A stretch of DNA of 45,121 bases from assembly GCA_964474855.1 (NCBI GenBank), contig CAYYUB010000001.1, forward strand, positions 1 through 45,121, written 5' to 3'. The notes below the pieces were generated by a model. The model saw only the letters and a program-made list of their open reading frames with translations. It searched no databases and had not been told where the DNA came from. Position 1 is the stretch's first letter, and each line of letters starts with the position of its first letter. The position numbers and the translations under genes were made by a program. Source of the stretch: an uncultured bacterium (GTDB taxonomy: Bacteria > Hydrothermota > UBA3072). This document shows, one piece after another, positions 18,499 to 42,059 of the stretch.

Positions 18499-18527
18499 TT
18501 TTTCCCTCCTAGTTTTGTTATGATATC

Positions 18528-24261: not shown

Positions 24262-24278
24262 CAACTAATTTTTACCCT
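24262..24278. repeat. Right copy of the 16-17 bp direct repeat flanking the IS
   Basis: Exact repeat of 22816-22832. Confidence 0.75.
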
Positions 24279-24305
24279 TGACAATTACCAGATAATTATT
24301 ATGAT
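24278..24305 (+). promoter_or_regulatory. Candidate sigma70-type promoter (TTGACA-N16-TATGAT) at the IS/right-arm junction
   Basis: TTGACA at 24278-24283 and TATGAT at 24300-24305. It lies about 450 nt upstream of the receptor gene in AT-rich DNA, so a chance match is quite possible. FCB-group promoters may also differ from this consensus. Confidence 0.2.
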
Positions 24306-24757
24306 AAATCATATGGAAATATTTAGCTCAAATAATTTGATATGCCGGAATTTATTAACTTATGGTTATAAAGTTGTCCATATGCTGATTAGAAAATAAG
24401 GTAAAGAGCAATTGAATTATCGTGATTTTAAAAATTATATAATAGTTAAATATTGAAAGTAATAAGAGTAATGTTTGAAGAGTTATATAGTAAAAGTAGA
24501 GAAGTGTTTTTTTGTTAGGCTCACTGAAGTAAGGAGGGCATGATAAAAATTATAGGTGAGAAAGTTTGGGTGTTATCTATATCTATGTTTATTCTGTTTT
24601 ATCCGTGTGGTCAAAATTCTATCGAGAGGTTTCAATGTAGTTTGAATCATTATCCAAAATCTAAGGAGGTTTATAAGGCAAGAATGTTTGTCGAGTTTTT
24701 TGCGTTTAAATCAACTGGTTTAACTTATTTTGTAAACCCTAATGAAAGGAGGTTTTC

Positions 24758-27700
24758 ATGAAAAAAGCGGAAAGGGGAAGAGAGTTGTTGCCCAGGTGGA
24801 TTTTATATAGTTTGCTTGTATTTGTTGCGTTTTTTATGGTTACTCAAGATGCGAAAACGGCGGTCACCGGAAAGATTGCTGGTGTCGTCGTGGATGCTAA
24901 AACCGGTGAGCCTCTACCTGGTGCCAATGTTGTAATCGAGGGTACCGATAGAGGAACTGCCTGTGATGTGGATGGTTATTACTTCATATCAAGATTGGAT
25001 CCGGGTAATTATAGCCTTCAGGCCAGAATGATGGGTTATAAAACTCTTACGATGACCGGTGTTAGGGTTATATCAGGACATACTACTCCTGCCGAATTCC
25101 AGTTAGAGGCGACGGTTATAATGGGTGAAGGAGTGACTGTCCAGGCTGAGAGAGAAGTTATTAAGATGGACCTTTCTTCCGGTTTTTTCGTTGCGGATAA
25201 AAGTGAAATAGAAGCTGTTCCTCTTATCTCAGACGTGAAACAATATCTCAACTTACAGGCCGGGATGGCAGGCTGGAGTGTTAGGGGTGGTGGTCAAGGT
25301 GAGACCAAATTGCTGGCTGATGGTTTACTTCTTGTCGACCAGAGAGTAAACGAACCTATCATGATGCCCAACCTGAGCGAGATAAAAGAGGTAAGGGTGG
25401 AAAAAGGAGGGTTTGCCGCAGAATACGCGAATGTTCGTTCGGGAGTTATAAATGTTGTAACCAGAGAAGGTTCTCCCGGAAAATACGAAGGTTCCTTTGA
25501 ATTCAGATATACTCCCGGTTATCAAAAGCACAGCGGTAATTCTGTCTTTGACCCTGATAATTATAATAATGCGGTGTATTTATGGAACAAGCTGGATACT
25601 GGTTATTTGAATATTGTGCTGGATACGTTAGGTGATATTATTTCTCAGGATACGGTTATTAAATATGACAGCGTTTGCTGGAAAGGCCCTAGGGCCGTAT
25701 GGGGGGATGAAGACAGCCCGTTTTACGATACACTTAAATATGAACATTATCAAGGATTTATGACATTTGGTGGATGGATATATGAGGTAAGAAGAGATAC
25801 GAATATTACTACTGCTGAAATGCAGCGTGATAGATTTATGTGGATGCGCCGTATTAATGTACCCAGAACAGATTCTCTCTTATTAATCTATAACGGTGGT
25901 GATTCCATTTATGCTCCGATTTATCAAGATGATACTTTATTGATAGGTTATGAAAAGGTTGCTTATGATTTTAGTGATCAGGATAGGACTGGCGAATACG
26001 GCAATAAGCCGGATTGGACCTTGGACGCTGGCTTTGGTGGTCCCATTCCCGTTATTGGCAGTTATTTAGGGGATATGACATTTTATACTTCTTACAGGGA
26101 CCATAATGAAGCGTTTGCTATTCCGGACAGCAGGGATTATTACAGAGAACGCCAGACAAGTTTAAAGCTGACTTCTCGTTTTGGTAACTTTAAGGTAAAT
26201 ATGAAGGGTGCCCACTCAATTATTAATTCCCTTTCCCCGTACGGCGAGGGTCACATGTGGCAAGGGGATTATCCCTCGGGGGAAATCGGACAGGGCTACC
26301 TCCGAGGCGGGTCGGATATGTTGTTCGGCGTTGCGCATTATGCTGGAAGATGGCACGGCAGTAATAAATTAAATGGCGATCAGCTGTACAGAGTAAATGC
26401 GTTAACCCCGTTCGATATTACTTCCAGAATGTACGGTCTCGCGCTGCAGCATGCTTTGTCAGAGAATACTTTTTATGATGTACATTTGACTTATCTACGC
26501 AGGAACAATAGGGCTCAATACAATTATGATGTGCCGACTCGTATGATGGGAGATACAGTGGTGCTGTGGTTTGCAGATAGTATTGGAGAAACTAAATATG
26601 CTGTGGACGACGTCCCGTATGGTTGGGCTCACCCTCTACATGAAGACAACTATGGTGCTGATGCTAGTGGCAAAGCGTCATTCGGTTTTTCCCATCAATG
26701 TGGAACCTGGAATACTTCCTGGGCACAGACCTATAGCGCGAGTTTCGGTATGAACTCACAATTAAATAAGTACAATCTGATAAAATTCGGTTTTTCGTTT
26801 CAATATGATAAACTGCATGAATATTTTATTACCAATGAGGGATGGTTCTGGCCGGAGGAAGGCGAAGACCCAACCGAGTCGAGTGAGGGTTATTTTGTTA
26901 ACTATAGTTCATATCCTATTCTTGCGGGCGGCTATATTCAGGACAAGATTGAATTCGAAGGAATGTTTGCCAATTTTGGTTTGAGGTTCGATTACTCGGA
27001 CCCAAATATCGAGTGGCCAGATACTACAGAGAGATATTCGCTTTTCCTTTCTTCATGGTTTAAAGATTCTTTGTTTACTCAGGGTCCTGTGGAAGGCGTG
27101 GCTTCTACCTTTCAGATAAGTCCTCGACTTGGAGTTTCATTCCCGGTATTGGAAAAAAGCAAGTTGTTCTTCAATTACGGACATTTTTACTCCCTGCCAA
27201 CCAACGAGAACAGGTATAAGGTTATCTGGGGTGCACCGGGTGATCCGATTAGTTTCCTGGGGAATCCGCGTCTTACGATGGAGAGGACAGTTTCTTATGA
27301 GGTGGGTCTTGAAAGCAGCATAGCTAATACTTACTTAGCAAGGATTTCGGGTTACTATAAGGATACAGATAATGAGAGCGGTACGGTTAAATATTTAAGT
27401 TATTACGGAGATGTTAATTATACAACTAATGAAAATACCGGCTATGGCGATACAAGGGGTTTTGAATTTGAGTTTAGGAAAGACCATGGAAGATTTTTTA
27501 CTGGGTGGGTAAATTATGATTACATGGTGCACACATCAGGAAGAATTGGATTAAGGCAAAATTATGAGGATCCGCTGTTACAGTCAAATGAGGCAAAGGT
27601 AGACCCCAAGGAGGATAAACCCCTTCCGCAGCCAGTTTTCAGGGCTCTATTTACATTGAAGGTGCCTCAGGATTGGGGAATATTTTTAGGAGGTTATAAT

Positions 27701-28165
27701 CTTTCATTTTCGTATCAATGGAGAGCGGGTTACTATGATAGGTTTAATCCTTATGGTGGGGATTTTGATGAGGTTTTGGCAAATAATATCCAATGGCCGG
27801 CTACGCGTATTATAGATGTGAGTATAAACAAGAGTCTTTCGATCGGCGGTGCTACAGCTAATCTGTTTATGGATGTGCACAATATTTTTGACTGGGGTAC
27901 TCTGGATGCTCAAGGCTTCGACCCTTCTTTGACTGGTGGCGTAGACCGAATTGAATATCTTAAATCCCTTCATCTCGAGATCTTTGATGAGGAACCTTTT
28001 GTGGATGATGAATCGGTAGTCGGTCCTGAAGAACTGGGAGTCGAACCGGATCACGTTGGAGATTTGCGAAGTGCTGATAAACCATATATAAATAATCCCA
28101 ATAGAGATTACCTTTGGTACCTTGACCCCAGATATGTGCAGTTTGGAATAAGGTTCTCTTTTTAG
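24758..28165 (+). CDS. TonB-dependent outer-membrane receptor with N-terminal carboxypeptidase-regulatory-like domain (not obviously SusC-type)
   Basis: GKIAGVVVDAKTGEPLPGANVVIEGTDRGTACDVDGYYFISRLDPGNYSLQARMMGYK (CarboxypepD_reg fold). Plug-like VTVQAEREVIKMD...IEAVPLISDVKQYLNLQAGM. Long beta-rich barrel ending in the aromatic terminus VQFGIRFSF. AGGAGG SD. Confidence 0.85.
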   Translation: MKKAERGRELLPRWILYSLLVFVAFFMVTQDAKTAVTGKIAGVVVDAKTGEPLPGANVVIEGTDRGTACDVDGYYFISRLDPGNYSLQARMMGYKTLTMTGVRVISGHTTPAEFQLEATVIMGEGVTVQAEREVIKMDLSSGFFVADKSEIEAVPLISDVKQYLNLQAGMAGWSVRGGGQGETKLLADGLLLVDQRVNEPIMMPNLSEIKEVRVEKGGFAAEYANVRSGVINVVTREGSPGKYEGSFEFRYTPGYQKHSGNSVFDPDNYNNAVYLWNKLDTGYLNIVLDTLGDIISQDTVIKYDSVCWKGPRAVWGDEDSPFYDTLKYEHYQGFMTFGGWIYEVRRDTNITTAEMQRDRFMWMRRINVPRTDSLLLIYNGGDSIYAPIYQDDTLLIGYEKVAYDFSDQDRTGEYGNKPDWTLDAGFGGPIPVIGSYLGDMTFYTSYRDHNEAFAIPDSRDYYRERQTSLKLTSRFGNFKVNMKGAHSIINSLSPYGEGHMWQGDYPSGEIGQGYLRGGSDMLFGVAHYAGRWHGSNKLNGDQLYRVNALTPFDITSRMYGLALQHALSENTFYDVHLTYLRRNNRAQYNYDVPTRMMGDTVVLWFADSIGETKYAVDDVPYGWAHPLHEDNYGADASGKASFGFSHQCGTWNTSWAQTYSASFGMNSQLNKYNLIKFGFSFQYDKLHEYFITNEGWFWPEEGEDPTESSEGYFVNYSSYPILAGGYIQDKIEFEGMFANFGLRFDYSDPNIEWPDTTERYSLFLSSWFKDSLFTQGPVEGVASTFQISPRLGVSFPVLEKSKLFFNYGHFYSLPTNENRYKVIWGAPGDPISFLGNPRLTMERTVSYEVGLESSIANTYLARISGYYKDTDNESGTVKYLSYYGDVNYTTNENTGYGDTRGFEFEFRKDHGRFFTGWVNYDYMVHTSGRIGLRQNYEDPLLQSNEAKVDPKEDKPLPQPVFRALFTLKVPQDWGIFLGGYNLSFSYQWRAGYYDRFNPYGGDFDEVLANNIQWPATRIIDVSINKSLSIGGATANLFMDVHNIFDWGTLDAQGFDPSLTGGVDRIEYLKSLHLEIFDEEPFVDDESVVGPEELGVEPDHVGDLRSADKPYINNPNRDYLWYLDPRYVQFGIRFSF

Positions 28166-28191
28166 AAGAGAAGAAAAGGAGGTTATTGAAA

Positions 28192-30534
28192 ATGAAACAT
28201 AGGAAGTTATTAATATTAATTTTTCTGCTGGCCTTTTTCCGGGTGGGTGGTGTCCATGCCCAGATTGTTAAACTGGTCAAAGTGGGAAAAACTGAAGCCA
28301 GGATATATGACCATGGCTGTCAAAGCAGTGAAGTTTGGGATTATGGTATGGTTGCGTACTATAGAGGCAGTTACTGTACTGTGGAGGATGAGATTGGTAG
28401 TACGAACTCGTGGCCAGGAGGGTTACTTAAGGATGCCGGATTGCTTTTTGGGGCTCGAAACTGGGAGGATACAACCGGACAAATATGGGATGCTTATATT
28501 ACAGGAAGTTGCGCTCGTTTACGTGACCTTGATATTTATCAATTTGCTGTTCCGGATGAAGGGGGTTTGACAATACACAGGTATATGAGGTATCCTCTTC
28601 CGCAGATAATTGTGGATGGAGATCATTGTGAAGATCCATTTCCTACGTCTGGAGATGAGGTGGCGCCCGAAAAAATATGGGGAACTGCCGATGTAATGGT
28701 CGAGTCCAACGTCAGGATGAGCATGGGTCTGGATGTTAAGCAGAGAGTGTTAGCCTGGAGTCAGCCCGGACATGATGATTACGTTATATGGGATTGGACA
28801 TTTGTAAATACGGGTAATGTAGATAGGGATCCTGAAATCGAGCTCCCGGATCAAACATTAGAGGATGTTTATATTGCCAGAGTTACCGAGGCTATGGTAA
28901 ACGGTATCGGGGACAATAAAGCACTGAGTACCTTTGCAGGAACAACAGAAAACCATGACACGACACTTGCTTATCCTCAAGGTCACGATTCTCTTCGGAT
29001 TGATTATATTACTCCTCTTAGAGCAGGTGGTTTATCGAGAGATAGTTATGGTTTTAACGCCGGAGCTGGTAATTGGAGTGTTCTGACCGGAGCCCGTTTT
29101 GCTGGCTCGGCGGTTTTATTTGCCCCTAAAAGTATTGATGTTCCGCAGAACTATCCCATTTCAGATATTGCCGCAAGTAATGACCCTGCCCAGCCATGTA
29201 TGCATACAAGTATGCTGGCGGAGCCCAGCTGGATTTTATTGCACAATGGAATATTGGCTGATTTTAACACAATGACACCCCAGGACCACGTTGATGCTTA
29301 TGAGGTTATGGTGAAGGGAGTATTTGGTATTGACACAACAATTCCTAATTATGAAGAAGCTTATTATATGGATAGTCTTTATGATGTTTACGATACTACA
29401 GCTTCCGGACACAAGACTCATTACGAACAACCCATAGATAGATGGGGAGAGCTAGATCCGGATAGGGGATATGCCTATGCCTCAGAAATCTCGTGGATCA
29501 GGTTTGACCAGCAAGGTCATTTTTCAATAGGACCTTACCAGATGGAATTCGGGGATACTCTGAGATATGTCTTTGCCTATGTAGGTGGTGCCATAAGCAG
29601 GAAGACTTCATACCTTCTAGGTGAAGCGTGGGATGGTGGGACAGCGGCTTCTTGGCTGCCAGGTATGGATTCGGCTCAAATGGTAGAAGAGTTGAAGAGA
29701 AGAGACCCTATATTCAACGTTTATTATGATATCGGAGGTTTAACTCCTACACCTTCTCTTAATGATATAGCGAAAGACCTGTTGGTGGCTAGAGGCAGAG
29801 ATTCTCTTTTCAACAACGGAATGAACGCGCAGAGAAACTTTAATATGAATTATAATATACCCGTTTCTACTGCACCTCCTTCCGTTTTTGAGGTTAATTC
29901 CAGGCCCGATATGATAAGGCTGGCATGGAGTTATGAGCCTGCTTATGAACCTTCACCTTCGGATATTGCAAAGTTTAAAATCTACAGAGCTTTAGGCGGA
30001 TATGTATATGAGAAGCAAGACGTGATAGTAATAGGCGATTGGCAATTGGTCGACTCTGTTGATGGGACTGCAAGACTATATGAAGATAGGGGTGTTACTC
30101 CGGCTGTTTATTATTATTACGCGATTACAGCCGTTAGCCCCGCGGGAATTGAAAGCGGAATGTATTTGACAATGACCAAATTAGCGGCAAATTTACAAAC
30201 TTATCCGGGTGACAGTCTCGAAATGGTAAGAGTTGTCCCAAATCCTTTGAATGTTAATTCTTCGGCACGTACGAGGTACAGTGAAGGAGAGGGACTAAAA
30301 CTAACCTTTGTTGAGTTGCCTCCCGAATGCACAATTACTGTATTGACAGAATCGGGAAATCTGGTGACAACCATCAATCATACCAACGGAAGCGGAACGG
30401 AAGTATGGGACATTCGTAATCAATTTCTTATTACGGATTCCGATCAGCTTCCGGTGAGCGGTATTTACATCGCACATATACAGGATGATAATACTGGCGA
30501 AAGCGTTTCCCGCAAGTTCGTAATAGTAAGATAA
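28192..30534 (+). CDS. Secreted protein of unknown function (about 780 aa) with an Fn3-like module and a T9SS/FlgD-Ig-type C-terminal domain
   Basis: Track ORF starts at TTG 28186. The ATG at 28192 is better spaced from the AAAGGAGG SD. Type I signal peptide MKHRKLLILIFLLAFFRVGGVHAQ with no lipobox Cys. C-terminus VRVVPNPLN...CTITVLTESGNLVTTI...EVWDIRN...VSGIYIAHIQ...RKFVIVR resembles CTD sorting domains. I recognise no motif in the first ~550 aa. Confidence 0.7.
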   Translation: MKHRKLLILIFLLAFFRVGGVHAQIVKLVKVGKTEARIYDHGCQSSEVWDYGMVAYYRGSYCTVEDEIGSTNSWPGGLLKDAGLLFGARNWEDTTGQIWDAYITGSCARLRDLDIYQFAVPDEGGLTIHRYMRYPLPQIIVDGDHCEDPFPTSGDEVAPEKIWGTADVMVESNVRMSMGLDVKQRVLAWSQPGHDDYVIWDWTFVNTGNVDRDPEIELPDQTLEDVYIARVTEAMVNGIGDNKALSTFAGTTENHDTTLAYPQGHDSLRIDYITPLRAGGLSRDSYGFNAGAGNWSVLTGARFAGSAVLFAPKSIDVPQNYPISDIAASNDPAQPCMHTSMLAEPSWILLHNGILADFNTMTPQDHVDAYEVMVKGVFGIDTTIPNYEEAYYMDSLYDVYDTTASGHKTHYEQPIDRWGELDPDRGYAYASEISWIRFDQQGHFSIGPYQMEFGDTLRYVFAYVGGAISRKTSYLLGEAWDGGTAASWLPGMDSAQMVEELKRRDPIFNVYYDIGGLTPTPSLNDIAKDLLVARGRDSLFNNGMNAQRNFNMNYNIPVSTAPPSVFEVNSRPDMIRLAWSYEPAYEPSPSDIAKFKIYRALGGYVYEKQDVIVIGDWQLVDSVDGTARLYEDRGVTPAVYYYYAITAVSPAGIESGMYLTMTKLAANLQTYPGDSLEMVRVVPNPLNVNSSARTRYSEGEGLKLTFVELPPECTITVLTESGNLVTTINHTNGSGTEVWDIRNQFLITDSDQLPVSGIYIAHIQDDNTGESVSRKFVIVR

Positions 30535-30546
30535 GGGGGAGGAAAG

Positions 30547-31536
30547 ATGAAGAAATTTATTGTTTTTATATCTATATTAGTAGTTAATCTTTCTTTTAGT
30601 GCATACGCAGTGGATAAGGTTGCCCAGACAGGATGCGGATTTTTAGATGTTGCTGCGGGTGCTCGGGCCTGCGGAATGGGAGAAGCATTTACTGTATTAG
30701 GCCAGGATGCCACCGCGCTCTTCTATAATCCTTCAGGTATTGGAAAAATCGATGCCAATATCGATTTATGTGCAGGTGGAACTCAGTGGATCGCCGATAT
30801 TAATTATCTCTATCTGGCTGGTGTCTTTAATGCCGGAGTTTGGGGAAATTTCGGTTTTAGCCTTATAACTCCTGATTATGGAGAATTTTACGGCACGACG
30901 GTGGCTGAAGGTACTGAAGCAGGCTATGAGAATACTGGTCTCTTTCATGTGCACGCATTTTGTGCGGGTGTAGCTTATGCCAGAGAATTCACCGATAAGT
31001 TTACGGTCGGAATTCAGGCCAAATACGTTTCTCAACATCTTGGAGAGAATGAATTTATGGTAATTGAAGATGTTGACACTTCATTTGTAAACAGACAAAA
31101 CGAAATTTCGACTCCGTCTTACGACTTCGGATTGCTTTTTTACCCCGGTTTTAAAAGTTTCGCTTTTGGTATGTCTGTTAGAAATTTCTCTCCCAGGGTA
31201 GCTTATGAACAAGTTGGTTTTGAATTGCCTTTAACTTTTGCTCTTGGTGTAGGCATGGATGTTCTGGATCTTTTTGGTGAGTATCCCGATTATTCTTTTA
31301 ACATTGGAGCGGATATGTTACATCCTCGCGATTGGCAGGAACTTTATCACGTGGGAGCAGAATTCTCGTTTAAGAATATGATTTTCCTCCGAGCCGGATA
31401 TAAATTTAACTATTACGCGGAAGGTTTAAACGCGGGAGTTGGTATTGAGTTAAACGGCGTGAAAATCGACTATTCATACAGCAAGCACGATTTGTATGAC
31501 ATGGTCAATAGAGTCTCCGGCGGATTTTCATTTTAG
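30547..31536 (+). CDS. PorV/PorQ-family (FadL-like) outer-membrane beta-barrel protein
   Basis: Signal peptide, then GFLDVAAGARACGMGEAFTVLGQDATALFYNPSGIG, the N-terminal signature shared by the PorV/PorQ/UPF0164 barrels. Alternating beta-strand pattern and aromatic C-terminus (VSGGFSF). GGGGGAGG SD. Confidence 0.65.
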   Translation: MKKFIVFISILVVNLSFSAYAVDKVAQTGCGFLDVAAGARACGMGEAFTVLGQDATALFYNPSGIGKIDANIDLCAGGTQWIADINYLYLAGVFNAGVWGNFGFSLITPDYGEFYGTTVAEGTEAGYENTGLFHVHAFCAGVAYAREFTDKFTVGIQAKYVSQHLGENEFMVIEDVDTSFVNRQNEISTPSYDFGLLFYPGFKSFAFGMSVRNFSPRVAYEQVGFELPLTFALGVGMDVLDLFGEYPDYSFNIGADMLHPRDWQELYHVGAEFSFKNMIFLRAGYKFNYYAEGLNAGVGIELNGVKIDYSYSKHDLYDMVNRVSGGFSF

Positions 31537-31635: not shown

Positions 31636-33036
31636 ATGATTTCTGAATCGCAGAATATATCTCTAAAAGAGAAGATTGGCTATGCTCTGGGTGATACTGC
31701 CTCGAACCTGTTTTTTCAGACATTTATTCTGTTTATAACTATCTTTTATACGGATGTTTTTGGTATCTCAGCCAAAGCAGTGGGAACTATGTTTTTAATT
31801 ACCAAGATATGGGATGCCGTCAATGATCCGATGATGGGTATGCTTGCCGATCGTACGCAAACACGCTGGGGTAAATTTCGACCCTACATACTCTGGTTTG
31901 CCATACCGTTCGGTTTAATTGGAGTATTAACTTTTACTACACCCAATCTTAGTACGGGTGGTAAGCTCATTTACGCCTACGTTACGTATACGTTGTTGAT
32001 GATGCTTTATACAATTGTAAATGTCCCTTATTCGGCGTTAATGGGTGTTATCACTTCCAATGCTAGAGTTCGAACCATAGTCTCGCAGTTTCGTTTTGTA
32101 GCTGCTTTTTTTGGAGGACTTATCGTTCAATACTCGGCCCTGCGTATGGTTCAAAGATTTGGAGCGGGAAACGATGCTTTAGGCTGGCAGAGGGCAATGA
32201 TTGTTCTTTCCTCTTTGGCTGTTGTGCTTTTATTTGTTACTTTTGCATCGACGAAAGAAAGGGTCAAGCCTCCGAAGGGACAGAAAACCCGTTTGAAGGA
32301 CGATTTGCGTGATTTATCTAAAAATAAACCGTGGTTAATGATTGGTGGTGCGACCGTATTCCAGCTTATGTTTATTCTTATTCGAACCGGCTGTATTATG
32401 TTCTATTTTACTTATTTTGTGCAGGATCAGCAGGTAATGCTTTTAGGTAAGGCCTATAGTTTTTCTTATCAGGGTATGGTGTCTGTCTTCTTTATGGCAG
32501 GTTCGGTTGTCACAATTCTGGGATCCATTCTTGCTGGCTGGTTTAGCAAGGTTTTGGGTAAGCGGAATACTTATGCCGGTTTTTTAGGTGCCAGCGGTAT
32601 ATTCGCAGCACTTTTCTTTTTCTTAGGCCCGAATGATATTATTCTAATGTTTGCTTTTCAGCTCCTTGTATCTTTTGCATTGGGTCCTGTGTCGGTGCTG
32701 CAATGGGCTATGTACACGGATACAGCCGATTATTCGGAACTGGAGACCGGAAGGCGTGCAACAGGGCTTGTGATGTCTGCTTCGCTATTTGCGCTTAAGC
32801 TTGGTGTAGCTCTTGGTGCCTCTATTTTAGCCTGGATCCTGTCCGGGTATGGTTATGTGCCCAATGTGCAGCAGACAGCAACATCACTTTTGGGTATAAG
32901 AATGGCAATTAGTATTTACGCGGCTATTCCTGCCCTTATTGGTGCAGGAATTATGTTCTTCTATCCTTTGACTAATGAAAGGATGGTTGAAATTGAAAAG
33001 GAATTAAACGCCAGACGTAGCTCTGAAACAGCTTAA
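31636..33036 (+). CDS. Glycoside-pentoside-hexuronide (GPH):cation symporter, xyloside/oligosaccharide transporter candidate
   Basis: About 12 hydrophobic segments. GPH loop motif WDAVNDPMMGMLADRTQTRWGKFRPY. AAGGAG SD. Confidence 0.85.
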   Translation: MISESQNISLKEKIGYALGDTASNLFFQTFILFITIFYTDVFGISAKAVGTMFLITKIWDAVNDPMMGMLADRTQTRWGKFRPYILWFAIPFGLIGVLTFTTPNLSTGGKLIYAYVTYTLLMMLYTIVNVPYSALMGVITSNARVRTIVSQFRFVAAFFGGLIVQYSALRMVQRFGAGNDALGWQRAMIVLSSLAVVLLFVTFASTKERVKPPKGQKTRLKDDLRDLSKNKPWLMIGGATVFQLMFILIRTGCIMFYFTYFVQDQQVMLLGKAYSFSYQGMVSVFFMAGSVVTILGSILAGWFSKVLGKRNTYAGFLGASGIFAALFFFLGPNDIILMFAFQLLVSFALGPVSVLQWAMYTDTADYSELETGRRATGLVMSASLFALKLGVALGASILAWILSGYGYVPNVQQTATSLLGIRMAISIYAAIPALIGAGIMFFYPLTNERMVEIEKELNARRSSETA

Positions 33037-33208
33037 AGCTAGGTTAATAAATAGGTTTTTTGAATAAATAGAATTGATTGATTAAAAGGCTTAAAGATTA
33101 TGGAAATAGAGATAGAATTCTCTTGCATTAAGCTGGCTGTTTAAATTGTGCTGTTTGTTCTTAAGAATTGAACAGCAATAAAAACCCCGATTTTAAAAGG
33201 AGTTATAT

Positions 33209-34633
33209 ATGAATTCTGAAACACAGAGTTTGTCTATAAGAGAAAAGATCGGTTACAGTCTTGGTGATTCTGCTGCTAACTTCTATTTTCAGATATACAT
33301 CGTTTTTCTGTTCTATTTCTATACCGATGTGTTTGGTATTTCTGCCTCAGTCGTTGGAACAATGTTTTTGGTCTCTAGAATATGGGATGCGGTAAATGAC
33401 CCAATGATGGGTGCCCTAGCTGATCGAACTAAGAGCCGCTGGGGAAAATTTCGTCCGTGGATATTGTTTACGTCTTTCCCTCTGGCTGTCTTTGGAGTGT
33501 TAGCTTTTACTACTCCGGATCTTAGTACCGCCGCTAAAATAGTATATGCTTATGTAACGTACAATTTTCTTATGATATTTTATACTGCCAATAACGTTCC
33601 ATATTCGGCATTGATGGGTGTTATGACAGGTGATACGGATGAGCGGACTGGTCTTGCTTCCTGGCGATTTACCTTTGCGATGGGGGCGGCACTAGTGATT
33701 CAGGGTTTGATGTTGCCTCTTGTCGGTAAATTCGGAGGCGGTGATGAGGCTAAAGGCTTTATGTTCGCTATGTTATTCTTTTCTTCTCTGGCTTTGGTAT
33801 TCTTGTTAACTACATTTTTCACCACGAGAGAAAGAATAAAACCTGACCCGAGTCAAAAGACTTCAATAAAACAGGATTTATCTGACCTCTTTAAAAACCG
33901 CCCATGGCTTACCATGTTCATCGCTACAATTTTCGTATTTATCTATTGGTCTATCAAAGGAAGCGTAGGACTTTATTACACTAAATATTTTGTTAATCTT
34001 GAGAGTCTACAGAACTTCCTGCAGATTTTTGGTCTGGCTCGAAGCCCGGATGCAGATGTTGTTAAAGCAGGATTTACATTTTATAGTGTTGCCGGAAACC
34101 TTGCAATGATAATTGGAATACTCTTTGCCAAACCTTTTGCTGTTAGATTTGGAAAAAAGAATGTTTTCAGGTCGTGTTTATTCCTGGCGGCGTGTTTCAC
34201 AGTTGTGTTCGTATTTTTAGCGCCAACAGCAGTTTTGTGGCAGTTTATCTTTAACATTCTTATTCAACTATCCTATGGGGTTACGGTTCCCCTGCTCTGG
34301 GCTATGATTGCTGATGTTGCTGATTTTACCGAATGGAAGACTCACCGACGAGCTACAGCTATGACCTTTGCCGGAATTTTGTTCGCTCTTAAACTGGGGC
34401 TTAGTCTTGGCGGTTTCGTTACCGGAAAGCTTCTTACTTTTTATAAATATGTTCCCAATGTCGCACAAAATGCTTTTACACTCCGTGGTATTCGTTATAT
34501 GATGAGTATTATTCCTGCTGTTGCGTTTTTCCTCGCTGTGGGTGCGGTTTTTTTCTATATAATAGATAAGAATATGGAACATAAAATCCAGGAAGAGCTA
34601 ACCGAACGTCGCAAGCAGTACAAATTTGATTAA
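33209..34633 (+). CDS. GPH:cation symporter, tandem paralogue of the preceding gene
   Basis: WDAVNDPMMGALADRTKSRWGKFRPW. The N-terminal half is clearly alignable to the upstream paralogue. AAGGAG SD. Confidence 0.85.
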   Translation: MNSETQSLSIREKIGYSLGDSAANFYFQIYIVFLFYFYTDVFGISASVVGTMFLVSRIWDAVNDPMMGALADRTKSRWGKFRPWILFTSFPLAVFGVLAFTTPDLSTAAKIVYAYVTYNFLMIFYTANNVPYSALMGVMTGDTDERTGLASWRFTFAMGAALVIQGLMLPLVGKFGGGDEAKGFMFAMLFFSSLALVFLLTTFFTTRERIKPDPSQKTSIKQDLSDLFKNRPWLTMFIATIFVFIYWSIKGSVGLYYTKYFVNLESLQNFLQIFGLARSPDADVVKAGFTFYSVAGNLAMIIGILFAKPFAVRFGKKNVFRSCLFLAACFTVVFVFLAPTAVLWQFIFNILIQLSYGVTVPLLWAMIADVADFTEWKTHRRATAMTFAGILFALKLGLSLGGFVTGKLLTFYKYVPNVAQNAFTLRGIRYMMSIIPAVAFFLAVGAVFFYIIDKNMEHKIQEELTERRKQYKFD

Positions 34634-34686
34634 TTTGGTAAAGTAGAGTGTTAGTATAATAAGGAAAAAAGAAAGGAAAAAAAAGA

Positions 34687-34760
34687 TTAACCACAGAGAA
34701 CACAGAGAATTTAATTGTGGTAAAAAAAGAAAAAACACCGAGAGCACAGAGGAAAAAAGG
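34687..34760 (+). repeat. CACAGAG-core intergenic repeat, copy 1
   Basis: TTAACCACAGAGAACACAGAGAATTTAATTGTGGTAAAAAAAG...CACCGAGAGCACAGAGG aligns position by position with 38791-38860. Confidence 0.7.
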
Positions 34761-34766
34761 AAGATT

Positions 34767-35930
34767 GTGAGAGGGTTAAGGTTAGCAGGTGTCTTATCTT
34801 TAAGCGTTATTTTGACCGGTATGATTAATTGCGTTACGTGCCGCAGTGTTCAAAAGCAAGAAATAAGTATTCAAGAGCCCAAATTAAAAGACGTATATAA
34901 AGATGCTTTTTATATCGGAACGGGGCTGGATAGTACCCAGATATATGGCGGCGACCAAAGAGCGCTTGCAATTATGAAGGAACAGTTCAACGCGGTTACG
35001 GCTGAGAACATTATGAAGTGGGAAAAGTTGCAGCCTGAGTTGGGTAAGTATTATTTTACAGTAGCTGATAGTTTCGTTAGTCTGGGTGAAAGGAATCAAA
35101 TGTACATTGTCGGACACGTTCTGCTCTGGCACTATCAAACGCCCGAGTGGGTTTTTCAGGATACGTCCGGAAATTTGGTAGATAGGGAAACACTTCTGAT
35201 GCGTATCCGTGATCATATTCATAATGTGGTAGGTCATTATAAAGGAAGGGTAGGTTCGTGGGATGTCGTAAATGAAGCGATCGACGATAACGGAGAGTGG
35301 AGAGAGAACCTCTACTACCAGATTATCGGGAAAGATTATGTTCAGAAAGCATTCGAATATGCCCGTGAAGCAGACCCTGATGCAAAGTTAATTTATAATG
35401 ATTATTCGTTGACTAATAGGGTGAAAAGGGATGCGGTGATTAAAATGGTCAGGGAATTACAGAGAAAGGGTGTAAAGGTAGACGAGATTGGAATGCAGGG
35501 ACATTATCATCTGGATTATCCTTTGCTTGATTCTCTTGAAGAAAGTATTGTAGAATTTTCGGAACTTGAAGTAAAAATAGCGATTACAGAGTACGAAATA
35601 AATGTTCTTCCCCGGCCGGATGATGAACAGCTTGGTGCGGATATTTCCCTGAATTATGAAATGCAAAAGAAGTACGATCCGTTTCCTGATTTCTTTCCTG
35701 ATTCAATGCAGCAAAAATTGGCTGACAGGTACGTTGATTTTTTTAAAATTTTTATAAAACATAAGGATAAAATTAGTAGAGTAACCATATGGGGTGTTCA
35801 CGATGGACAATCTTGGACTAATTTTTGGCCGATTAGAGGAAGGACTAACTATCCTTTGCTTTTTGATCGGCAGTACGAGCCAAAGGCAGCATTTGATGCG
35901 TTGATCGAAATTGGCAAAAAGAACAAATAA
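34767..35930 (+). CDS. Glycoside hydrolase family 10 endo-1,4-beta-xylanase, exported (signal peptide, possible lipoprotein)
   Basis: GTG start after AAGGAAG. AENIMKWEKLQPELGKYYF, GHVLLWHYQTPEW, WDVVNEAID (acid/base), KIAITEYEINV (nucleophile region). N-terminus LSLSVILTGMINC. Confidence 0.85.
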   Translation: MRGLRLAGVLSLSVILTGMINCVTCRSVQKQEISIQEPKLKDVYKDAFYIGTGLDSTQIYGGDQRALAIMKEQFNAVTAENIMKWEKLQPELGKYYFTVADSFVSLGERNQMYIVGHVLLWHYQTPEWVFQDTSGNLVDRETLLMRIRDHIHNVVGHYKGRVGSWDVVNEAIDDNGEWRENLYYQIIGKDYVQKAFEYAREADPDAKLIYNDYSLTNRVKRDAVIKMVRELQRKGVKVDEIGMQGHYHLDYPLLDSLEESIVEFSELEVKIAITEYEINVLPRPDDEQLGADISLNYEMQKKYDPFPDFFPDSMQQKLADRYVDFFKIFIKHKDKISRVTIWGVHDGQSWTNFWPIRGRTNYPLLFDRQYEPKAAFDALIEIGKKNK

Positions 35931-36007
35931 AAGTTATTGAGAGAACGTTTCGCAGTAGTGGATTTATTAAGAGGCGTTTTTATTCTCAATTGCAAGGAGG
36001 TTAGATT

Positions 36008-37612
36008 ATGAGTAGGTTTGTTGTATTGTTTACGGTTTTATCATTTTTGTTTTTGATTATTTTGACAAACTGTTCGGTAGAGTATAATGAAACGTATACC
36101 AATCCGGTTATTCCGGGTGGTTTTCCGGATCCGAGTATATGTCGCGTTGGAGACGATTACTATACTGCTCACAGTTCATTTGAATACTTCCCGGGTGTGC
36201 CGATTTTTCACAGTAAAGACCTGGTGCACTGGCGCCAGATCGGATTTTGTCTGGCACGTGAAAGTCAATTACCTCTTAAGAATATGAGATATTCCGGAGG
36301 TATCTATGCTCCTACTCTTCGCTACCACGATGGATTATTCTATATGATAACTACAAATGTGGATGGTGGAGGTAATTTTTATGTTACAGCAAAAGATCCT
36401 GCAGGGCCCTGGTCTGAGCCTGTCTGGATCGACATACATGGTATGGATCCTTCTCTGTTTTTTGATGATGATGGCAAGGTTTATTACACAAGACACGAGG
36501 GTGGAGGTGACGGCTATATTGCCCAGAGATTATTAAATCTTAAGGAAGGGAAACTCGAAGGAGATTTAAAGAAAGTATGGGGCGGTACCGGCGGAATATG
36601 GGCAGAAGGTCCGCATCTATATAAAATAAATGGCAAGTACTATTTGATGATTTCAGAGGGTGGTACAAGCTACGGTCATATGATAACAATAGCTCGTAGC
36701 GATTCTCCTTGGGGACCTTTTGAATCTAATCCCGATAATCCGATTCTGACGCACAAAGACCAAGAAGGGCATCAGTTTAGAGCTCTCGGACACGGAGATT
36801 TGGTCGAGACTCCCGATGGATGGTGGATTGTTTTTCTAGGAATTCGTCCCAAAGGCGGCAATTATAACCATCTTGGTAGAGAGATGTTTTTGGCTCCCCT
36901 AGAGTGGGATGAAGATGGTTGGCCTGTTGTTAATGGGGGGAATCCTATAGAAAAAATTATGCAGGCACCAAGAATACCTAAATATGAATTCAAGGAAGAT
37001 CCCGAGAGGGATGATTTTGATAATTCGAATATTGCTCTTTGCTGGAATTATTTAAGAAATCCTTACAAGGAGAACTATTCTTTGATGCGGCGTCCGGGTT
37101 TCTTGCGTCTTAACGGTTCGGCAATAACTATGGAAGATCAAGATTCGCCTGCTTTTCTGGGACGCCGTCAAACAGCAATGGAATGTAGAGTGGCAACTAA
37201 ACTTGATTTCTATCCGCAAAACGATAATGAAGAAGCGGGGCTTGTTATCAGAGGAAATGAGGTAAACCGCGCGGAAATAGGAATCACTATTAAAGATGGT
37301 AAACGGCATGTATTCTTTATGAATATGGTTAAAGGTGAATTAGTTGAGCCTATTCGCTATGAAGAGATCGAAGATGGAGAAGTCATTCTGTCAGTGGAAG
37401 CAAAGCCCCTGTCATATGAACTCTTCTATCAAATTAATGATGAACCCGCAAAGAGTATGGGTAAGGTATTGACTAAGTACCTGACTTTTGAGGAAGTAGT
37501 CGGATATTTATTTACCGGAGTCTACTTCGGTATGTACGCGACGGGTAACGGAAAAGTAAGCACTACCCCGGCTGATTTTGATTGGTTTGAATTTATAGTG
37601 CATAAGAAATAA
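36008..37612 (+). CDS. GH43 beta-xylosidase/alpha-L-arabinofuranosidase with C-terminal beta-sandwich, exported (LTNC lipobox-like)
   Basis: YTNPVIPGGFPDPSICRVGDDYYTAHSSFEYFPGVPIFHSKDLVHW, AEGPHLYKINGKYYL, C-terminal concanavalin-like region (EEAGLVIRGNE). AGGAGG SD. Confidence 0.88.
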   Translation: MSRFVVLFTVLSFLFLIILTNCSVEYNETYTNPVIPGGFPDPSICRVGDDYYTAHSSFEYFPGVPIFHSKDLVHWRQIGFCLARESQLPLKNMRYSGGIYAPTLRYHDGLFYMITTNVDGGGNFYVTAKDPAGPWSEPVWIDIHGMDPSLFFDDDGKVYYTRHEGGGDGYIAQRLLNLKEGKLEGDLKKVWGGTGGIWAEGPHLYKINGKYYLMISEGGTSYGHMITIARSDSPWGPFESNPDNPILTHKDQEGHQFRALGHGDLVETPDGWWIVFLGIRPKGGNYNHLGREMFLAPLEWDEDGWPVVNGGNPIEKIMQAPRIPKYEFKEDPERDDFDNSNIALCWNYLRNPYKENYSLMRRPGFLRLNGSAITMEDQDSPAFLGRRQTAMECRVATKLDFYPQNDNEEAGLVIRGNEVNRAEIGITIKDGKRHVFFMNMVKGELVEPIRYEEIEDGEVILSVEAKPLSYELFYQINDEPAKSMGKVLTKYLTFEEVVGYLFTGVYFGMYATGNGKVSTTPADFDWFEFIVHKK

Positions 37613-37633
37613 GCTCTTTAAGGAGAAAGTAAA

Positions 37634-38719
37634 ATGGAGAAATATAAAAGTATACAGAATCAACCTGCACTAAAGGATATATTTAAGGATGACTTTTATA
37701 TTGGTGCCGCAATCAGTCTGGATCAAATTGAAGGCAAGGATCCGGGTGGAATCACCCTTGTAGAAAAACACTTTAACAGCATTGTAGCGGAGAATATTCT
37801 AAAATGGGAAGAAATACATCCGGAATTAAACAGATATAATTTCGAACCGGCTGATAAATACGCGGCATTTGGAAAGAAGAACAATATGTTCGTAGTCGGA
37901 CACACTCTCGTCTGGTTTTATCAGACGCCTGATTGGGTGTTTGAGGATGAATCCGGCAATCCATTAGATAGAGAAGCTCTTCTTAAACGAATGAAGGAGC
38001 ACATCTTTACCGTAATGGGTCGTTATAAAGGCAAAGTCCACGGTTGGGATGTCGTGAACGAAGCAATAGTCGAAGATGGATCTTTTAGAAAATGTAAATG
38101 GTATGACATTATAGGCGAAGATTACGTACAAAAAGCGTTCGAATACGCGCGTGAGGCTAACCCTGATGCGGAGCTTTATTACAACGATTATGATTATTAC
38201 AAGAAGCCTAAATGTGAGGGTATTATTAGGCTGATAAGAGATTTGCAGTCTCGAGGTATTCGTGTGGATGGGGTAGGCATACAGGGGCACTGGTTTCTGG
38301 AACATCCTGATATAAATGAAATTGAGGATTACGTTTTAGCTCTCGGAAAGTTAGGTGTAAAAATTATGGTTACGGAATTGGATGTTGGAGTACTTCCTTT
38401 TTATCCCTGTGATACTCCGGTAAGAGACCTATCATCTTTTGATACTGAAACACAGAAAAAGTATAATCCTTACACTGAAGGTATTCCGGATTCCGTTCTT
38501 AAGGAACAGGCGGACCGGTACGCCGAATTGTTTTCGTTATTCCGAAGACATAGGGAAAAATTCGACCGGATAACATTCTGGGCTGTTCACGACAAGCAAT
38601 CCTGGCGTAGTTATTTGCCAATAAAGGGTAGGACCGAATATCCGATGTTGTTTGATCGCGAGTGTAATCCAAAGCCGGCTTTTGATGCCGTTGTAAAAAC
38701 AGTTCAAAGTAGAGAGTAA
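37634..38719 (+). CDS. GH10 xylanase without signal peptide (cytoplasmic xylo-oligosaccharide-cleaving type)
   Basis: AENILKWEEIHPELNRYNF, GHTLVWFYQTPDW, WDVVNEAIV, IMVTELDVGV. Begins MEKYKSIQNQP with no hydrophobic leader. AAGGAGA SD. Confidence 0.88.
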   Translation: MEKYKSIQNQPALKDIFKDDFYIGAAISLDQIEGKDPGGITLVEKHFNSIVAENILKWEEIHPELNRYNFEPADKYAAFGKKNNMFVVGHTLVWFYQTPDWVFEDESGNPLDREALLKRMKEHIFTVMGRYKGKVHGWDVVNEAIVEDGSFRKCKWYDIIGEDYVQKAFEYAREANPDAELYYNDYDYYKKPKCEGIIRLIRDLQSRGIRVDGVGIQGHWFLEHPDINEIEDYVLALGKLGVKIMVTELDVGVLPFYPCDTPVRDLSSFDTETQKKYNPYTEGIPDSVLKEQADRYAELFSLFRRHREKFDRITFWAVHDKQSWRSYLPIKGRTEYPMLFDRECNPKPAFDAVVKTVQSRE

Positions 38720-38790
38720 GGGTAAGATGCTAAACAGTATGTTGGACTTGACATTAGACTCTTATAGGATATTATTCTGCAAAAACCTAA

Positions 38791-38933
38791 TTAACCACAG
38801 AGGACACAAAGAAATAATTATGTTAAAAAAAAATACTAAGGACACAGAGAAAAGAAGGAAATAAAAACTCTGTGCTCTCTGCGGTAAAATATTTAGGTGT
38901 GGAGTTGTGTGGGCTCTGTGGTTTGATTTTTTT
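38791..38933 (+). repeat. CACAGAG-core repeat copy 2 with inverted partner copies, forming nested hairpins followed by T7 (REP-like element or candidate intrinsic terminator)
   Basis: AACCACAGAG(38793-38802)/CTCTGTGGTT(38914-38923) plus CACAA/TTGTG form the outer stem. CACAGAG(38843-38849)/CTCTGTG(38868-38874) form the inner stem. TTTTTTT at 38927-38933. Confidence 0.55.
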
Positions 38934-38979
38934 ACAAAAAGAACAAAAAGTTGATCGGTGAAACTATAAGGAGATTAAA

Positions 38980-40194
38980 ATGACAAATGAAAAAGATCTT
39001 GAAATCGTAGCTGCAGGTCATACCTGCCTTGATTTAATACCGGCTTTTACAATCGAGGGAACAGTTGACAAGATGACTGATGTTCTTGTGCCCGGTAAAA
39101 TGATAAATATGGGGAAATGTGTTGTTGTGGGAGGAGGTCCTGTCACCAATGCTGGAGTGTCAATACGACGTCTTGGCGTGAAAACAGAACTTATCGGAAA
39201 AATTGGTGATGATGATTTCGGCAAACAGATTCTTAGTTGGTATGAAGAAAAAGAAGGTCATTTTGAAGGTATAAGAGTGGCTAAAGGTGAATCAACATCA
39301 TATACCATCGCGATTTGTATTCCTGGAATAGACCGTTTTTATCTGCATCATTGCGGAGCGAATGATACTTTTGGTTATGATGATATGGATTTTGATATTG
39401 TTAAAAGATCAAAACTTATGCTTTTCGGTTATCCGCCATGGATGAAAAAACTTTATGCAAATAAAGGCGCGGAGTTGACAAAAATACTTGAAAAGACAAG
39501 GGAATTAAATACAACGATCGCTCTCGATCTTTCTCTTCCTGACGTAGATGGCTACGGTGATAGTATCGACTGGTTTGCTATTGTTGAAAATTGGATTCCT
39601 CTATCGGATATTATGGTACCGAGTGCGGAAGAAATTTTCTATTTCCTGTACAAAGATAAATTTCTTGAGAAGAGAGCTAATCTAGGTCCTAAGGAAACCG
39701 TACTCGATAATATGAGTGTCGAAGAAATTTCCAGGATAGGTAAAGATTTAATAAAGATGGGTACAGCAATAGCTATGGTCAAGTGCGGAAATAGAGGATT
39801 GTATATCCGGACTGCCGGTGCTGAACGACTTGCGAAATTAGGAACTGCGGGATGTTCCGACCTCGATAACTGGGCTAACCGTGAACTCTGGTTCCCGGTA
39901 TACGAAGAAGAGAAATTTGTAGGAGCTCTTGGTTCCGGTGATTCGGCAATTGCCGGATTTCTTTCCGCTTTTGTATGGAATCATTCCGTAGAGTCCTGTT
40001 TGCGTTATGCCAACGCAGCGGGAAGTATGAACGTTACAGTTCCCGACGGGCTTACCTGGAATAAAGGATTTGATGATTTAACAAGGAGAATCGAAGCCCC
40101 TTGGAAGACGAAAGAGTTGAAAATCAATACGGAAGGTTGGAAATTTGAGAACGGGTTCTGGGTTGGACCCGATAATAAAGGTAAGTGGGAATAA
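38980..40194 (+). CDS. PfkB/ribokinase-superfamily carbohydrate kinase, atypically long (404 aa), substrate unknown
   Basis: N-terminal IVAAGHTCLDLIP and C-terminal anion-hole-like ALGSGDSAIAGFLSA. Extra C-terminal ~50 aa. No signal peptide. AAGGAGA SD. Confidence 0.7.
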   Translation: MTNEKDLEIVAAGHTCLDLIPAFTIEGTVDKMTDVLVPGKMINMGKCVVVGGGPVTNAGVSIRRLGVKTELIGKIGDDDFGKQILSWYEEKEGHFEGIRVAKGESTSYTIAICIPGIDRFYLHHCGANDTFGYDDMDFDIVKRSKLMLFGYPPWMKKLYANKGAELTKILEKTRELNTTIALDLSLPDVDGYGDSIDWFAIVENWIPLSDIMVPSAEEIFYFLYKDKFLEKRANLGPKETVLDNMSVEEISRIGKDLIKMGTAIAMVKCGNRGLYIRTAGAERLAKLGTAGCSDLDNWANRELWFPVYEEEKFVGALGSGDSAIAGFLSAFVWNHSVESCLRYANAAGSMNVTVPDGLTWNKGFDDLTRRIEAPWKTKELKINTEGWKFENGFWVGPDNKGKWE

Positions 40195-40223
40195 TAAAAA
40201 AAGAGGAGATAAAGGAGATAAAA

Positions 40224-42047: not shown

Positions 42048-42059
42048 GGGGGCTATTAT

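Follow-up and report, generated by a model that had tools for sequence, protein, structure and literature searches.

What is the role of an apparently secreted protein of no recognisable family that is encoded between an outer-membrane transporter and a PorV-like barrel at the head of a run of glycosidase genes? This question is raised by gene X, which lies on a 45,121-nucleotide stretch of DNA (hereafter the window; contig CAYYUB010000001.1 of assembly GCA_964474855.1) from an uncultured bacterium of the Hydrothermota lineage UBA3072. A first-pass annotation, made from the sequence alone, had described its 780-residue product, here also called X, as an orphan and had suggested that it either binds glycans at the cell surface or represents a new endo-enzyme. 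By comparing X with its relatives, with their neighbouring genes and with known structures, we arrive at a reading in which we place a confidence slightly above even, namely, that X is the accessory subunit, exposed at the surface, of an outer-membrane uptake module whose three genes encode a TonB-dependent transporter (TBDT), X and a PorV-like barrel. From the earlier suggestion we keep the location at the surface and the connection with the receptor and the PorV-like gene, whereas profile and structure searches found no evidence for catalysis. We set out the gene, its domains, its family, its synteny and co-divergence with the two partner genes and its variant C-terminal domain (CTD) as direct observations, and build the proposed function on them.

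The first line of evidence is gene order. A genome scan with one genome per GTDB species returned 280 loci that encode a relative of X, 79 of which were kept, and cassettes were detected by phmmer comparison of the three window proteins with all open reading frames (ORFs) of all loci. Wherever the contig is long enough, TBDT, X and PorV-like genes follow each other in this order on one strand, which gives 64 complete cassettes, or 59 when identical ones are counted once. The median intergenic gaps are 25 bp between TBDT and X and 17.5 bp between X and the barrel; the arrangement was also seen one by one in L001, L002/L003, L004/L005, L007, L008 and L009. The placement of X between a receptor and a PorV-like gene, to which the first-pass annotation had pointed, is therefore real and conserved across several phyla. 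The largest exception to the tight spacing is L065 (Calditrichota), where an extra 329-residue ORF (L065:6908-7897) stands between transporter and X, with a second complete cassette in tandem.

Both partners of X can be assigned at family level. The transporter is a TonB receptor of the CarboxypepD_reg type: it carries an N-terminal carboxypeptidase-regulatory-like domain (Pfam CarbopepD_reg_2, E 2.6e-18), gives a weak Plug match and matches the NCBIfam TonB-receptor barrel models. Against the SusC/RagA model it scores 58.5 versus a cut-off of 368, and among PDB sequences only its N-terminal domain matches a 'SusC homolog' (9hfj, E 1.9e-4), so that, judged by the curated model, it is not a SusC. 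The downstream barrel belongs to the PorV/PorQ family (NF033709, 169.5 bits against a cut-off of 90, E 1.4e-49) and stays under the equivalog cut-offs of both PorV (73.3 versus 250) and PorQ (69.7 versus 220). It also matches Pfam PorP_SprF (E 1.2e-13), scores 41.5 against a cut-off of 90.55 with the NCBIfam PorP/SprF family model, finds the PorV of F. johnsoniae in the PDB (6h3i_F, E 3.2e-7) and has a marginal match to the BamG model (E 0.0018).

The relatives found also show that X is no orphan. Its family comprises 208 clusters at 90% identity. When the head domain by itself was used for an exhaustive profile search, 381 clusters at 50% identity were returned, of which 228 have E≤1e-10, and a Rhodothermales clade adds at least 1230 further clusters at 90% identity. 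All named members are annotated as "hypothetical" or "fibronectin type III domain-containing". By the labels of their records, they come from WOR-3, KSB1, Calditrichota, Neomarinimicrobiota (Marinimicrobia), Ignavibacteria, Kryptoniota, Rhodothermales and metagenome-assembled genomes (MAGs) of Bacteroidota/Cytophagia, and the cultured carriers include Stygiobacter electus (Ignavibacteria), Roseithermus sacchariphilus (Rhodothermales, complete genome) and Rubrivirga marina. Three cassette-bearing MAGs (L042, L056 and L089) are labelled Planctomycetota, Lentisphaeria or Deferribacteres, that is, outside the FCB group; L042 equals L043, an unclassified MAG, in ORF coordinates and phmmer E-values, and mis-binning or mislabelling is likely. 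We found no published account of the cassette or of the X family, in a literature search whose coverage of subscription journals was thin.

The second line of evidence is co-divergence. Pairwise identity matrices correlate with r = 0.97 between X and TBDT and with r = 0.88 between X and the PorV-like barrel. Because shared species history alone could produce correlations this high, we examined 13 pairs of paralogous cassettes within single genomes, where species divergence is zero, and obtained r = 0.86 (X-TBDT) and r = 0.90 (X-barrel). X was never more conserved than the TBDT or the barrel in these pairs (one example gives 0.45, 0.60 and 0.67 for X, TBDT and barrel, respectively), and several genomes hold three or four cassettes, some of them in tandem (L011, L012, L013, L065 and L088). 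These comparisons indicate that whole cassettes duplicate and diverge together, each keeping its own barrel, with X changing fastest; as the fastest-evolving member, X is likely the specificity determinant of the cassette.

The same data bear on a rival in which X is a free surface glycan-binding protein or adhesin of the SusE/F type that is co-regulated with the transporter and forms no complex with it, the barrel being only its secretion carrier. Its architecture, with a CTD behind a fibronectin type III (Fn3) spacer, is that of many adhesins and binding proteins exported through a type IX secretion system (T9SS); free-standing paralogues exist; and remote relatives that share only the beta part of the head are transporter-independent T9SS cargo, in which this part is fused to beta-helix, BNR, LRR or FG-GAP modules and always accompanied by Por_Secre_tail. 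A tight and ancient adjacency to one TBDT subfamily, combined with a co-divergence of r = 0.97 that also appears within genomes, nevertheless exceeds what co-regulation usually leaves behind, and the loci of Ignavibacteria and Rhodothermales have extra downstream CTD proteins that already look SusE/F-type. We therefore regard a free binder as improbable.

The third line of evidence comes from the tail of X, which the first-pass annotation had rightly likened to a CTD. NCBIfam gave only two matches to X, both weak and both confined to its final ~110 residues. One is to the type-A sorting domain of the T9SS (TIGR04183, 19.1 bits where 23 would be required, E 9.7e-4), the other to the C-terminus of PorZ (E 4.9e-4). 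PF18962 did not match in Pfam at E≤1, and no type-B sorting-domain model was among the NCBIfam matches at E≤1. Alignment with the canonical CTDs of two proteins of glycoside hydrolase (GH) family GH43 from the window recovers the type-A motifs B (PNP; V682-P685), D (GxY; G757-Y759) and E (KxxxxR; K775), and the AlphaFold2 model predicts a beta-sandwich with strands over residues 704-778, preceded by a low-confidence linker around residues 685-694. All cassette members carry two insertions in this domain, one of ~13 residues after PNP and the other an HTxGSGxExW loop with a further extension. It is these family-specific insertions that depress the TIGR04183 score, and hence we speak of a variant CTD. 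This CTD is the most conserved domain of X, with a mean pairwise identity of 0.55 compared to 0.35-0.40 for the head and Fn3, and about 17 of its positions are invariant among the 59 cassettes.

Paralogues with a canonical Por_Secre_tail have neither the CTD insertions nor a barrel gene downstream. In the P0104/P0105/P0107 clade the canonical-CTD protein stands alone beside FtsK and FecR-domain genes, and in P0078 the passenger shares 70% identity with X as far as residue 661 and then continues into a canonical CTD that cannot be aligned with that of X, with an unrelated gene downstream. Because the type of CTD correlates with the presence of the barrel gene, these data suggest that the variant CTD and the dedicated barrel recognise each other. 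The free-standing paralogues have a conserved locus of their own: in L006, L010, L090 and L091 they carry the canonical CTD, lack transporter and barrel and lie after FtsK, with genes for a C39-peptidase/FlgD_ig protein, an unknown protein of ~1275-1300 residues and a FecR-domain protein of 1020-1028 residues on their 3' side.

In agreement with the first-pass annotation, which had recognised no catalytic or binding family in the first ~550 residues, residues 1-560 gave no match in Pfam (E≤1), NCBIfam or PDB sequences, and neither profile nor structure searches returned a confident match to a characterised family. The single X protein matched nothing among PDB sequences, and a 67-member family profile found Fn3 only (3mpc Fn3-like protein, E 2.2e-4). 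The AlphaFold2 model of full-length X, built with the family alignment (pLDDT 88.3, pTM 0.88), retrieved only tandem FnIII structures with Foldseek (E 7.6e-7); the Fn3-like module read earlier from the sequence is thus supported by profile and structure alike, although the Pfam fn3 model does not match X, and this domain (residues 563-670) is probably a spacer.

Because tandem FnIII dominated the full-length results, residues 25-562 were modelled separately (pLDDT 91.7, pTM 0.93). The best Foldseek matches of this head were N-terminal beta-supersandwich (galactose-mutarotase-like) domains, with E-values of 1.2e-5 to 1e-3 and probabilities up to 1.0, from a GH15-type dextran dextrinase (9ju0), GH94 phosphorylases (1v7v, 3qde and 8ho8) and GH116 and GH65 enzymes, at query-normalised TM scores of only 0.26-0.28, a root mean square deviation of about 15 Å and identities of 7-10%. 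On these models, the resemblance is best described as a common fold element and not as a family match, and since the supersandwich matches are only partial, X was given no GH, polysaccharide lyase (PL) or carbohydrate-binding module (CBM) family. Profiles of GH, PL, carbohydrate esterase (CE) and CBM families gave no match in Pfam, and the NCBIfam and PDB sequence searches were likewise empty. Unlike the GH94, GH15-type, GH116 and GH65 enzymes, in which an (alpha/alpha)6 catalytic barrel follows the supersandwich, and with which it shares no profile relationship, X has too few helices for such a barrel: DSSP places them at residues 363-379, 470-481, 494-511 and 523-551 (the last of 29 residues), with a long hairpin at 441-467. 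Remote homology to the GH116 and GH95 proteins of the window, which have supersandwich N-domains, was considered and rejected (hhalign probability <1%). Since remote multidomain T9SS cargo shares the beta part of X and this region has no Pfam model, the head contains an uncatalogued domain typical of T9SS cargo.

The motif that is most conserved within the passenger, WSQxxHDDYVIWDxTFVNTGN...E, with N206, N209 and E217, lies in the beta-rich head subdomain. N206, N209, E217 and D537 are invariant over all 59 cassettes, and in the WOR-3/KSB1 subset many acidic and polar residues are invariant, namely D155, D195, D196, D201, E217, D266, R269, D284 and D537; most of the acidic residues in this set vary elsewhere in the cassette family, in the Ignavibacteria and Rhodothermales clades. 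Residues 341-562 are the most variable part of the passenger, with a block conservation of 0.17-0.38 over residues 341-440 and 481-520.

These residues speak for a second rival, which holds that X is a new surface-anchored carbohydrate-active enzyme (CAZyme), such as an endo-xylanase, a lyase or an esterase, which would cleave polymer on the cell surface and so supply the transporter, and for which binding is not the main role. To the invariant acidic and polar positions it can add the weak fold likeness to domains of glycoside hydrolases and phosphorylases and a gap in the locus: no T9SS-CTD-bearing endo-xylanase is encoded in the window, where one GH10 (GH10a, 34767-35930), like the neighbouring GH43 (36008-37612), has a lipobox-like N-terminus (…GMINC and …ILTNC, respectively) and the other (GH10b, 37634-38719) has no signal peptide and looks cytoplasmic. 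The structural matches, however, are to non-catalytic N-terminal domains at the low TM scores and large deviations given above, no GH, PL or CE profile is matched, the helical part falls short of the size of an (alpha/alpha)6 barrel, and the hhalign comparison with the GH116 and GH95 of the window was empty. Moreover, members from Ignavibacteria and Rhodothermales have not kept most of the acidic residues, some loci with the cassette are free of CAZymes, and the paralogous cassette in L018 has its own CTD-bearing GH10 close by (L018:13096-14487). An enzymatic role for X thus seems unlikely to us.

The neighbourhoods of the cassette indicate how far the link to xylan extends. By its gene content, the locus in the window is of a heteroxylan or xyloglucan type: the set of GH10, GH43, GH3, GH116 and MFS_2 genes that follows the cassette recurs in L001, L007 and L009 (relatives at 46-48% identity), the opposite arm encodes two CTD-bearing GH43 proteins together with GH95, GH3, GH97, GH31, GH3 and GH42, and the canonical CTDs of the GH43 proteins suggest that the host uses type IX secretion. 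P0094 and P0091 (about 47% identity) have the cassette followed by the same xylan genes as the window, and P0122, where it is likewise present, is a second copy beside one of 71% in the same genome. Further away, P0109 (37%) has the cassette followed by DUF3857/transglutaminase genes and no CAZymes, P0118 (34%, a Calditrichaceae MAG; L004) has it near GWxTD, TamB, BamA and OmpH genes, P0130 (a KSB1 bacterium) combines it with GH109 and tagatose-pathway genes, and other neighbours include Nramp/ThuA genes and a GH63-like gene. The assignment of X to a carbohydrate locus therefore stands for the relatives at 46-100% identity, among which the xylan context is kept, and not for the family, which is not confined to such loci. 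Because distant cassettes adjoin non-carbohydrate genes, X proteins as a whole look like general accessories to transporters, with a clade-specific role for xylan.

Two further contexts are worth recording. In L058, L062, L077, L069 and L086 (Ignavibacteria, Kryptoniota and Rhodothermales), the cassette is part of a conserved larger locus, with a GHL10-family CTD protein nearby and, after the cassette, genes for a TIG-domain protein, for one or two CTD proteins of unknown kind and for a GT2 glycosyltransferase. That different phyla keep this order points to an old function of the clade in surface glycans, which may be a housekeeping one. In two related WOR-3 loci (L001:4318-6326 and L009:3066-5976), genes for corrinoid-dependent methyltransferases (B12-binding, MtaB or URO-D type) lie directly upstream of a xylan-type cassette, which is probably a coincidence.

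The variety of contexts also speaks for a third rival, according to which X and the barrel serve the assembly, gating or regulation of this transporter subfamily, for instance, as a barrel-closing cap or an insertion factor, and take no part in nutrient capture. The TamB, BamA and OmpH genes in L004, the high conservation of the CTD and the barrel relative to the passenger and the precedent of a FadL-like barrel within the BAM complex of Bacteroidota (PMC12578637) are in its favour. Several divergent cassettes per genome, with X as the fastest member, fit substrate specificity better, as does the consistent pairing with catabolic genes (xylan, GH109/tagatose and GH63-like), and we consider a role in assembly, gating or regulation very unlikely.

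Returning to X as an accessory subunit for uptake, we propose the following sequence of steps. X would (i) cross the inner membrane via Sec, with the signal peptide read from its sequence, and (ii) be taken through the type IX translocon by its variant CTD, as the CTD motifs and the two canonical T9SS cargo proteins of the window suggest. (iii) The dedicated PorV/PorQ-family barrel, and not the general PorV, would then pick up X and keep it, giving it an anchor in the outer membrane; for this step we rely on the strict gene order, on co-divergence, on the unusual conservation of the CTD and on the lack of a barrel beside canonical-CTD paralogues. (iv) The Fn3 spacer would place the 540-residue head next to or over the transporter, where the head may capture substrate and pass it on, as SusD does for SusC. 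Here we infer how X is exported, that the barrel retains it, that it touches the transporter and that it binds a ligand. In the window, the operon content makes xylan-derived oligosaccharides the most likely substrate; after uptake by the transporter, they would be trimmed in the periplasm by GH10a and GH43, imported by MFS_2 symporters and degraded in the cytoplasm by GH10b, GH3 and GH116. More broadly, we think it possible, though somewhat short of an even chance, that bacteria throughout the FCB superphylum (WOR-3, KSB1, Calditrichota, Marinimicrobia, Ignavibacteria, Kryptoniota and Rhodothermales) have an undescribed three-component uptake machine in common, in which the substrate-capturing lid of the TBDT is a T9SS-secreted protein of new fold that is held permanently on its own PorV-like carrier through a specialised, uncleaved CTD.

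Several observations weigh against X being such a subunit. In the Pfam and Foldseek searches, its head resembles neither SusD nor any other known TBDT lid, and no binding site can be recognised in it. The invariant N206, N209, E217 and D537, together with the acidic cluster of the WOR-3/KSB1 members, could mark an active site, and a window without an obviously secreted endo-xylanase leaves room for an enzymatic role. The link between a canonical CTD and the lack of a barrel gene comes from two lineages, and P0078 is a 3.5-kb metagenome contig that is possibly chimeric. Finally, type A T9SS cargo uses PorV, and as all type-A motifs are kept, the CTD of X could likewise use the general PorV, be cleaved and leave X attached to lipopolysaccharide; the adjacent barrel would then have another role.

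The coordinates of the cassette and of the parts of X are given in Table 1. A sequence identical to the product of gene X is held in a public protein collection (P0001), and the TTG at 28186, two codons before the ATG of gene X, is the mechanical start of the ORF. The N-terminus reads by eye as a Sec signal peptide (MKHRKLLILIFLLAFFRVGGVHA-Q) without a lipobox cysteine; the segment MKHRKLLILIFLLAFFRVGGVHAQ is free of cysteine altogether, the first Cys being at position 43 and not conserved, and the signal peptide is the least conserved segment of X (mean pairwise identity 0.24). The first-pass annotation had taken the N-terminal cysteines as a sign of an oxidising location, which the family does not bear out: C43, C62, C107, C146 and C336 each recur in only 3 to 36 of the 67 relatives compared, and C713, in the CTD, is the sole conserved cysteine of X.

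Table 1. Gene X, its parts and its neighbours in the window.
Feature	Position	Strand	Basis or remark
TonB-dependent outer-membrane transporter (TBDT), 1135 aa, first cassette gene	24758..28165	+	Pfam, NCBIfam
Gene X, second cassette gene	28192..30534	+	780 aa, ATG start; 26 bp after transporter
Sec signal peptide, X aa 1-24	28192..28263	+	read directly from sequence, MKHRKLLILIFLLAFFRVGGVHA-QI
Beta-rich head subdomain, X aa 25-340, supersandwich-like fold	28264..29211	+	DSSP on models, Foldseek
Mixed helical/beta-hairpin subdomain, X aa 341-562	29212..29877	+	DSSP; ends in 29-residue helix
Fibronectin type III domain, X aa 563-670	29878..30201	+	3mpc profile match, Foldseek
Linker and variant T9SS CTD, X aa 671-780, with stop codon	30202..30534	+	TIGR04183, PorZ C-terminus, alignment
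PorV/PorQ-family 14-strand-type barrel, 329 aa, third cassette gene	30547..31536	+	12 bp after X
Two MFS_2 symporters, GH10, GH43 (beta-xylosidase type), GH10, PfkB kinase, GH3, GH116	31636..44633	+	Pfam

Two details of the rest of the window may be useful to its annotators. Between the divergent arms, beside a 1.1-kb gap (23647-24757), lies a 253-residue ORF on the minus strand (22885-23646) that has no Pfam match and whose sequence (DDATNELL..., DKASHFKT..., SPQAKGRIER) resembles a DDE transposase/integrase core minus its N-terminus; it may be the remnant of an insertion sequence in the shared regulatory region of the locus. The ORFs of the two CTD-bearing GH43 genes (16243-18621 and 18528-22646, both on the minus strand) overlap by 94 bp because the downstream ORF was extended to an upstream GTG, and an internal MKKI..., ~40 residues in, is more likely the true start.

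If the proposed role is correct, it would matter beyond this locus. SusC/SusD pairs are the accepted marker by which polysaccharide utilisation loci are found in genomes, and many FCB lineages outside the Bacteroidia degrade polymers yet have few or no SusD genes. The cassette would provide a new marker for nutrient-uptake loci in poorly understood, mostly uncultured phyla, a role would be assigned to thousands of "hypothetical" proteins, and the head domain would add a family to the catalogue. Because the family occurs in the cultured strains Roseithermus sacchariphilus, Stygiobacter electus and Rubrivirga marina, the hypothesis can be put directly to the test.

Among known systems, SusC/SusD (RagA/RagB) comes closest in function. 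As there, a large TBDT with a carboxypeptidase-regulatory-like domain is followed by the gene of a surface partner, several divergent copies occur per genome, the partner is the faster of the two to diverge, and copies lie within substrate-specific glycosidase loci. We considered X as a SusD homologue and rejected this, as it has no lipobox, a beta-rich fold instead of an all-alpha tetratricopeptide-repeat fold and no SusD Pfam match (E≤1); the 50 best Foldseek matches of the head include no SusD structure. Unlike SusD, X carries Fn3 and a T9SS CTD, so that its surface exposure would come via the T9SS and not via lipoprotein export, and unlike SusC/SusD, the cassette has a third constant gene, the PorV-like barrel, and a transporter that falls far under the SusC/RagA cut-off.

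In secretion and anchoring, type B cargo with PorP/SprF carriers, discussed below, and PorZ-PorQ of Porphyromonas gingivalis come closest to X. In PorZ-PorQ, and likewise in PorU-PorV of this species, the surface protein retains its CTD and sits on a barrel of the PorV/PorQ family. PorZ and PorU are single-copy components of the secretion machine, whereas the X family is multi-copy and tied to a transporter, and its passenger is unrelated. A PorZ-like identity of X is disfavoured, since only the CTD matches weakly and the multi-copy, transporter-linked distribution argues against a component of the secretion machine.

The idea of a dedicated carrier is likewise familiar from the T9SS. Recognition of cargo at the translocon falls to the cognate carrier barrel (PMC10994853), and for type B cargo, PorP/SprF-like barrels are encoded beside the cargo gene and then serve as surface anchors (PMC9143113, PMC12618676). 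The cassette resembles SprB-SprF and PG1035-PorP (type B; PMC9143113, PMC12618676) in that a cargo gene adjoins the gene of a FadL-like barrel, here with adjacency and co-divergence as the evidence. It differs from them in that the CTD of X has type-A motifs and insertions, the barrel belongs to the PorV/PorQ and not to the PorP/SprF family, and the known type B cargoes are adhesins, not transporter partners; were our proposal true, the concept of a T9SS carrier that is dedicated to its cargo and also anchors it would reach beyond gliding adhesins to transporter subunits. A structural parallel to the arrangement proposed here, with a 14-strand FadL-like barrel against a larger barrel and holding a surface protein, is BamG-BamH, where the FadL-like BamG packs against BamA and holds the surface protein BamH through its loops (PMC12578637), although the machine is a different one and its surface partner is a lipoprotein.

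The gene-order signature of the cassette can also be recognised in the xylan locus of Rhodothermus marinus, where a TonB receptor (Rmar_1070) is followed by a hypothetical protein with a signal peptide and a Por CTD (Rmar_1071) and by another hypothetical protein (Rmar_1072), beside Xyn10A and a SusC/SusD pair (PMC6987092), a likeness at the level of gene annotations. As we read it, the cassette combines two known kinds of system, a TBDT with a surface partner and a T9SS pair of cargo and dedicated carrier. If the three-component uptake machine outlined above exists, it would represent a second, independent solution to the problem solved by SusCD and a new use of the carrier principle of the T9SS.

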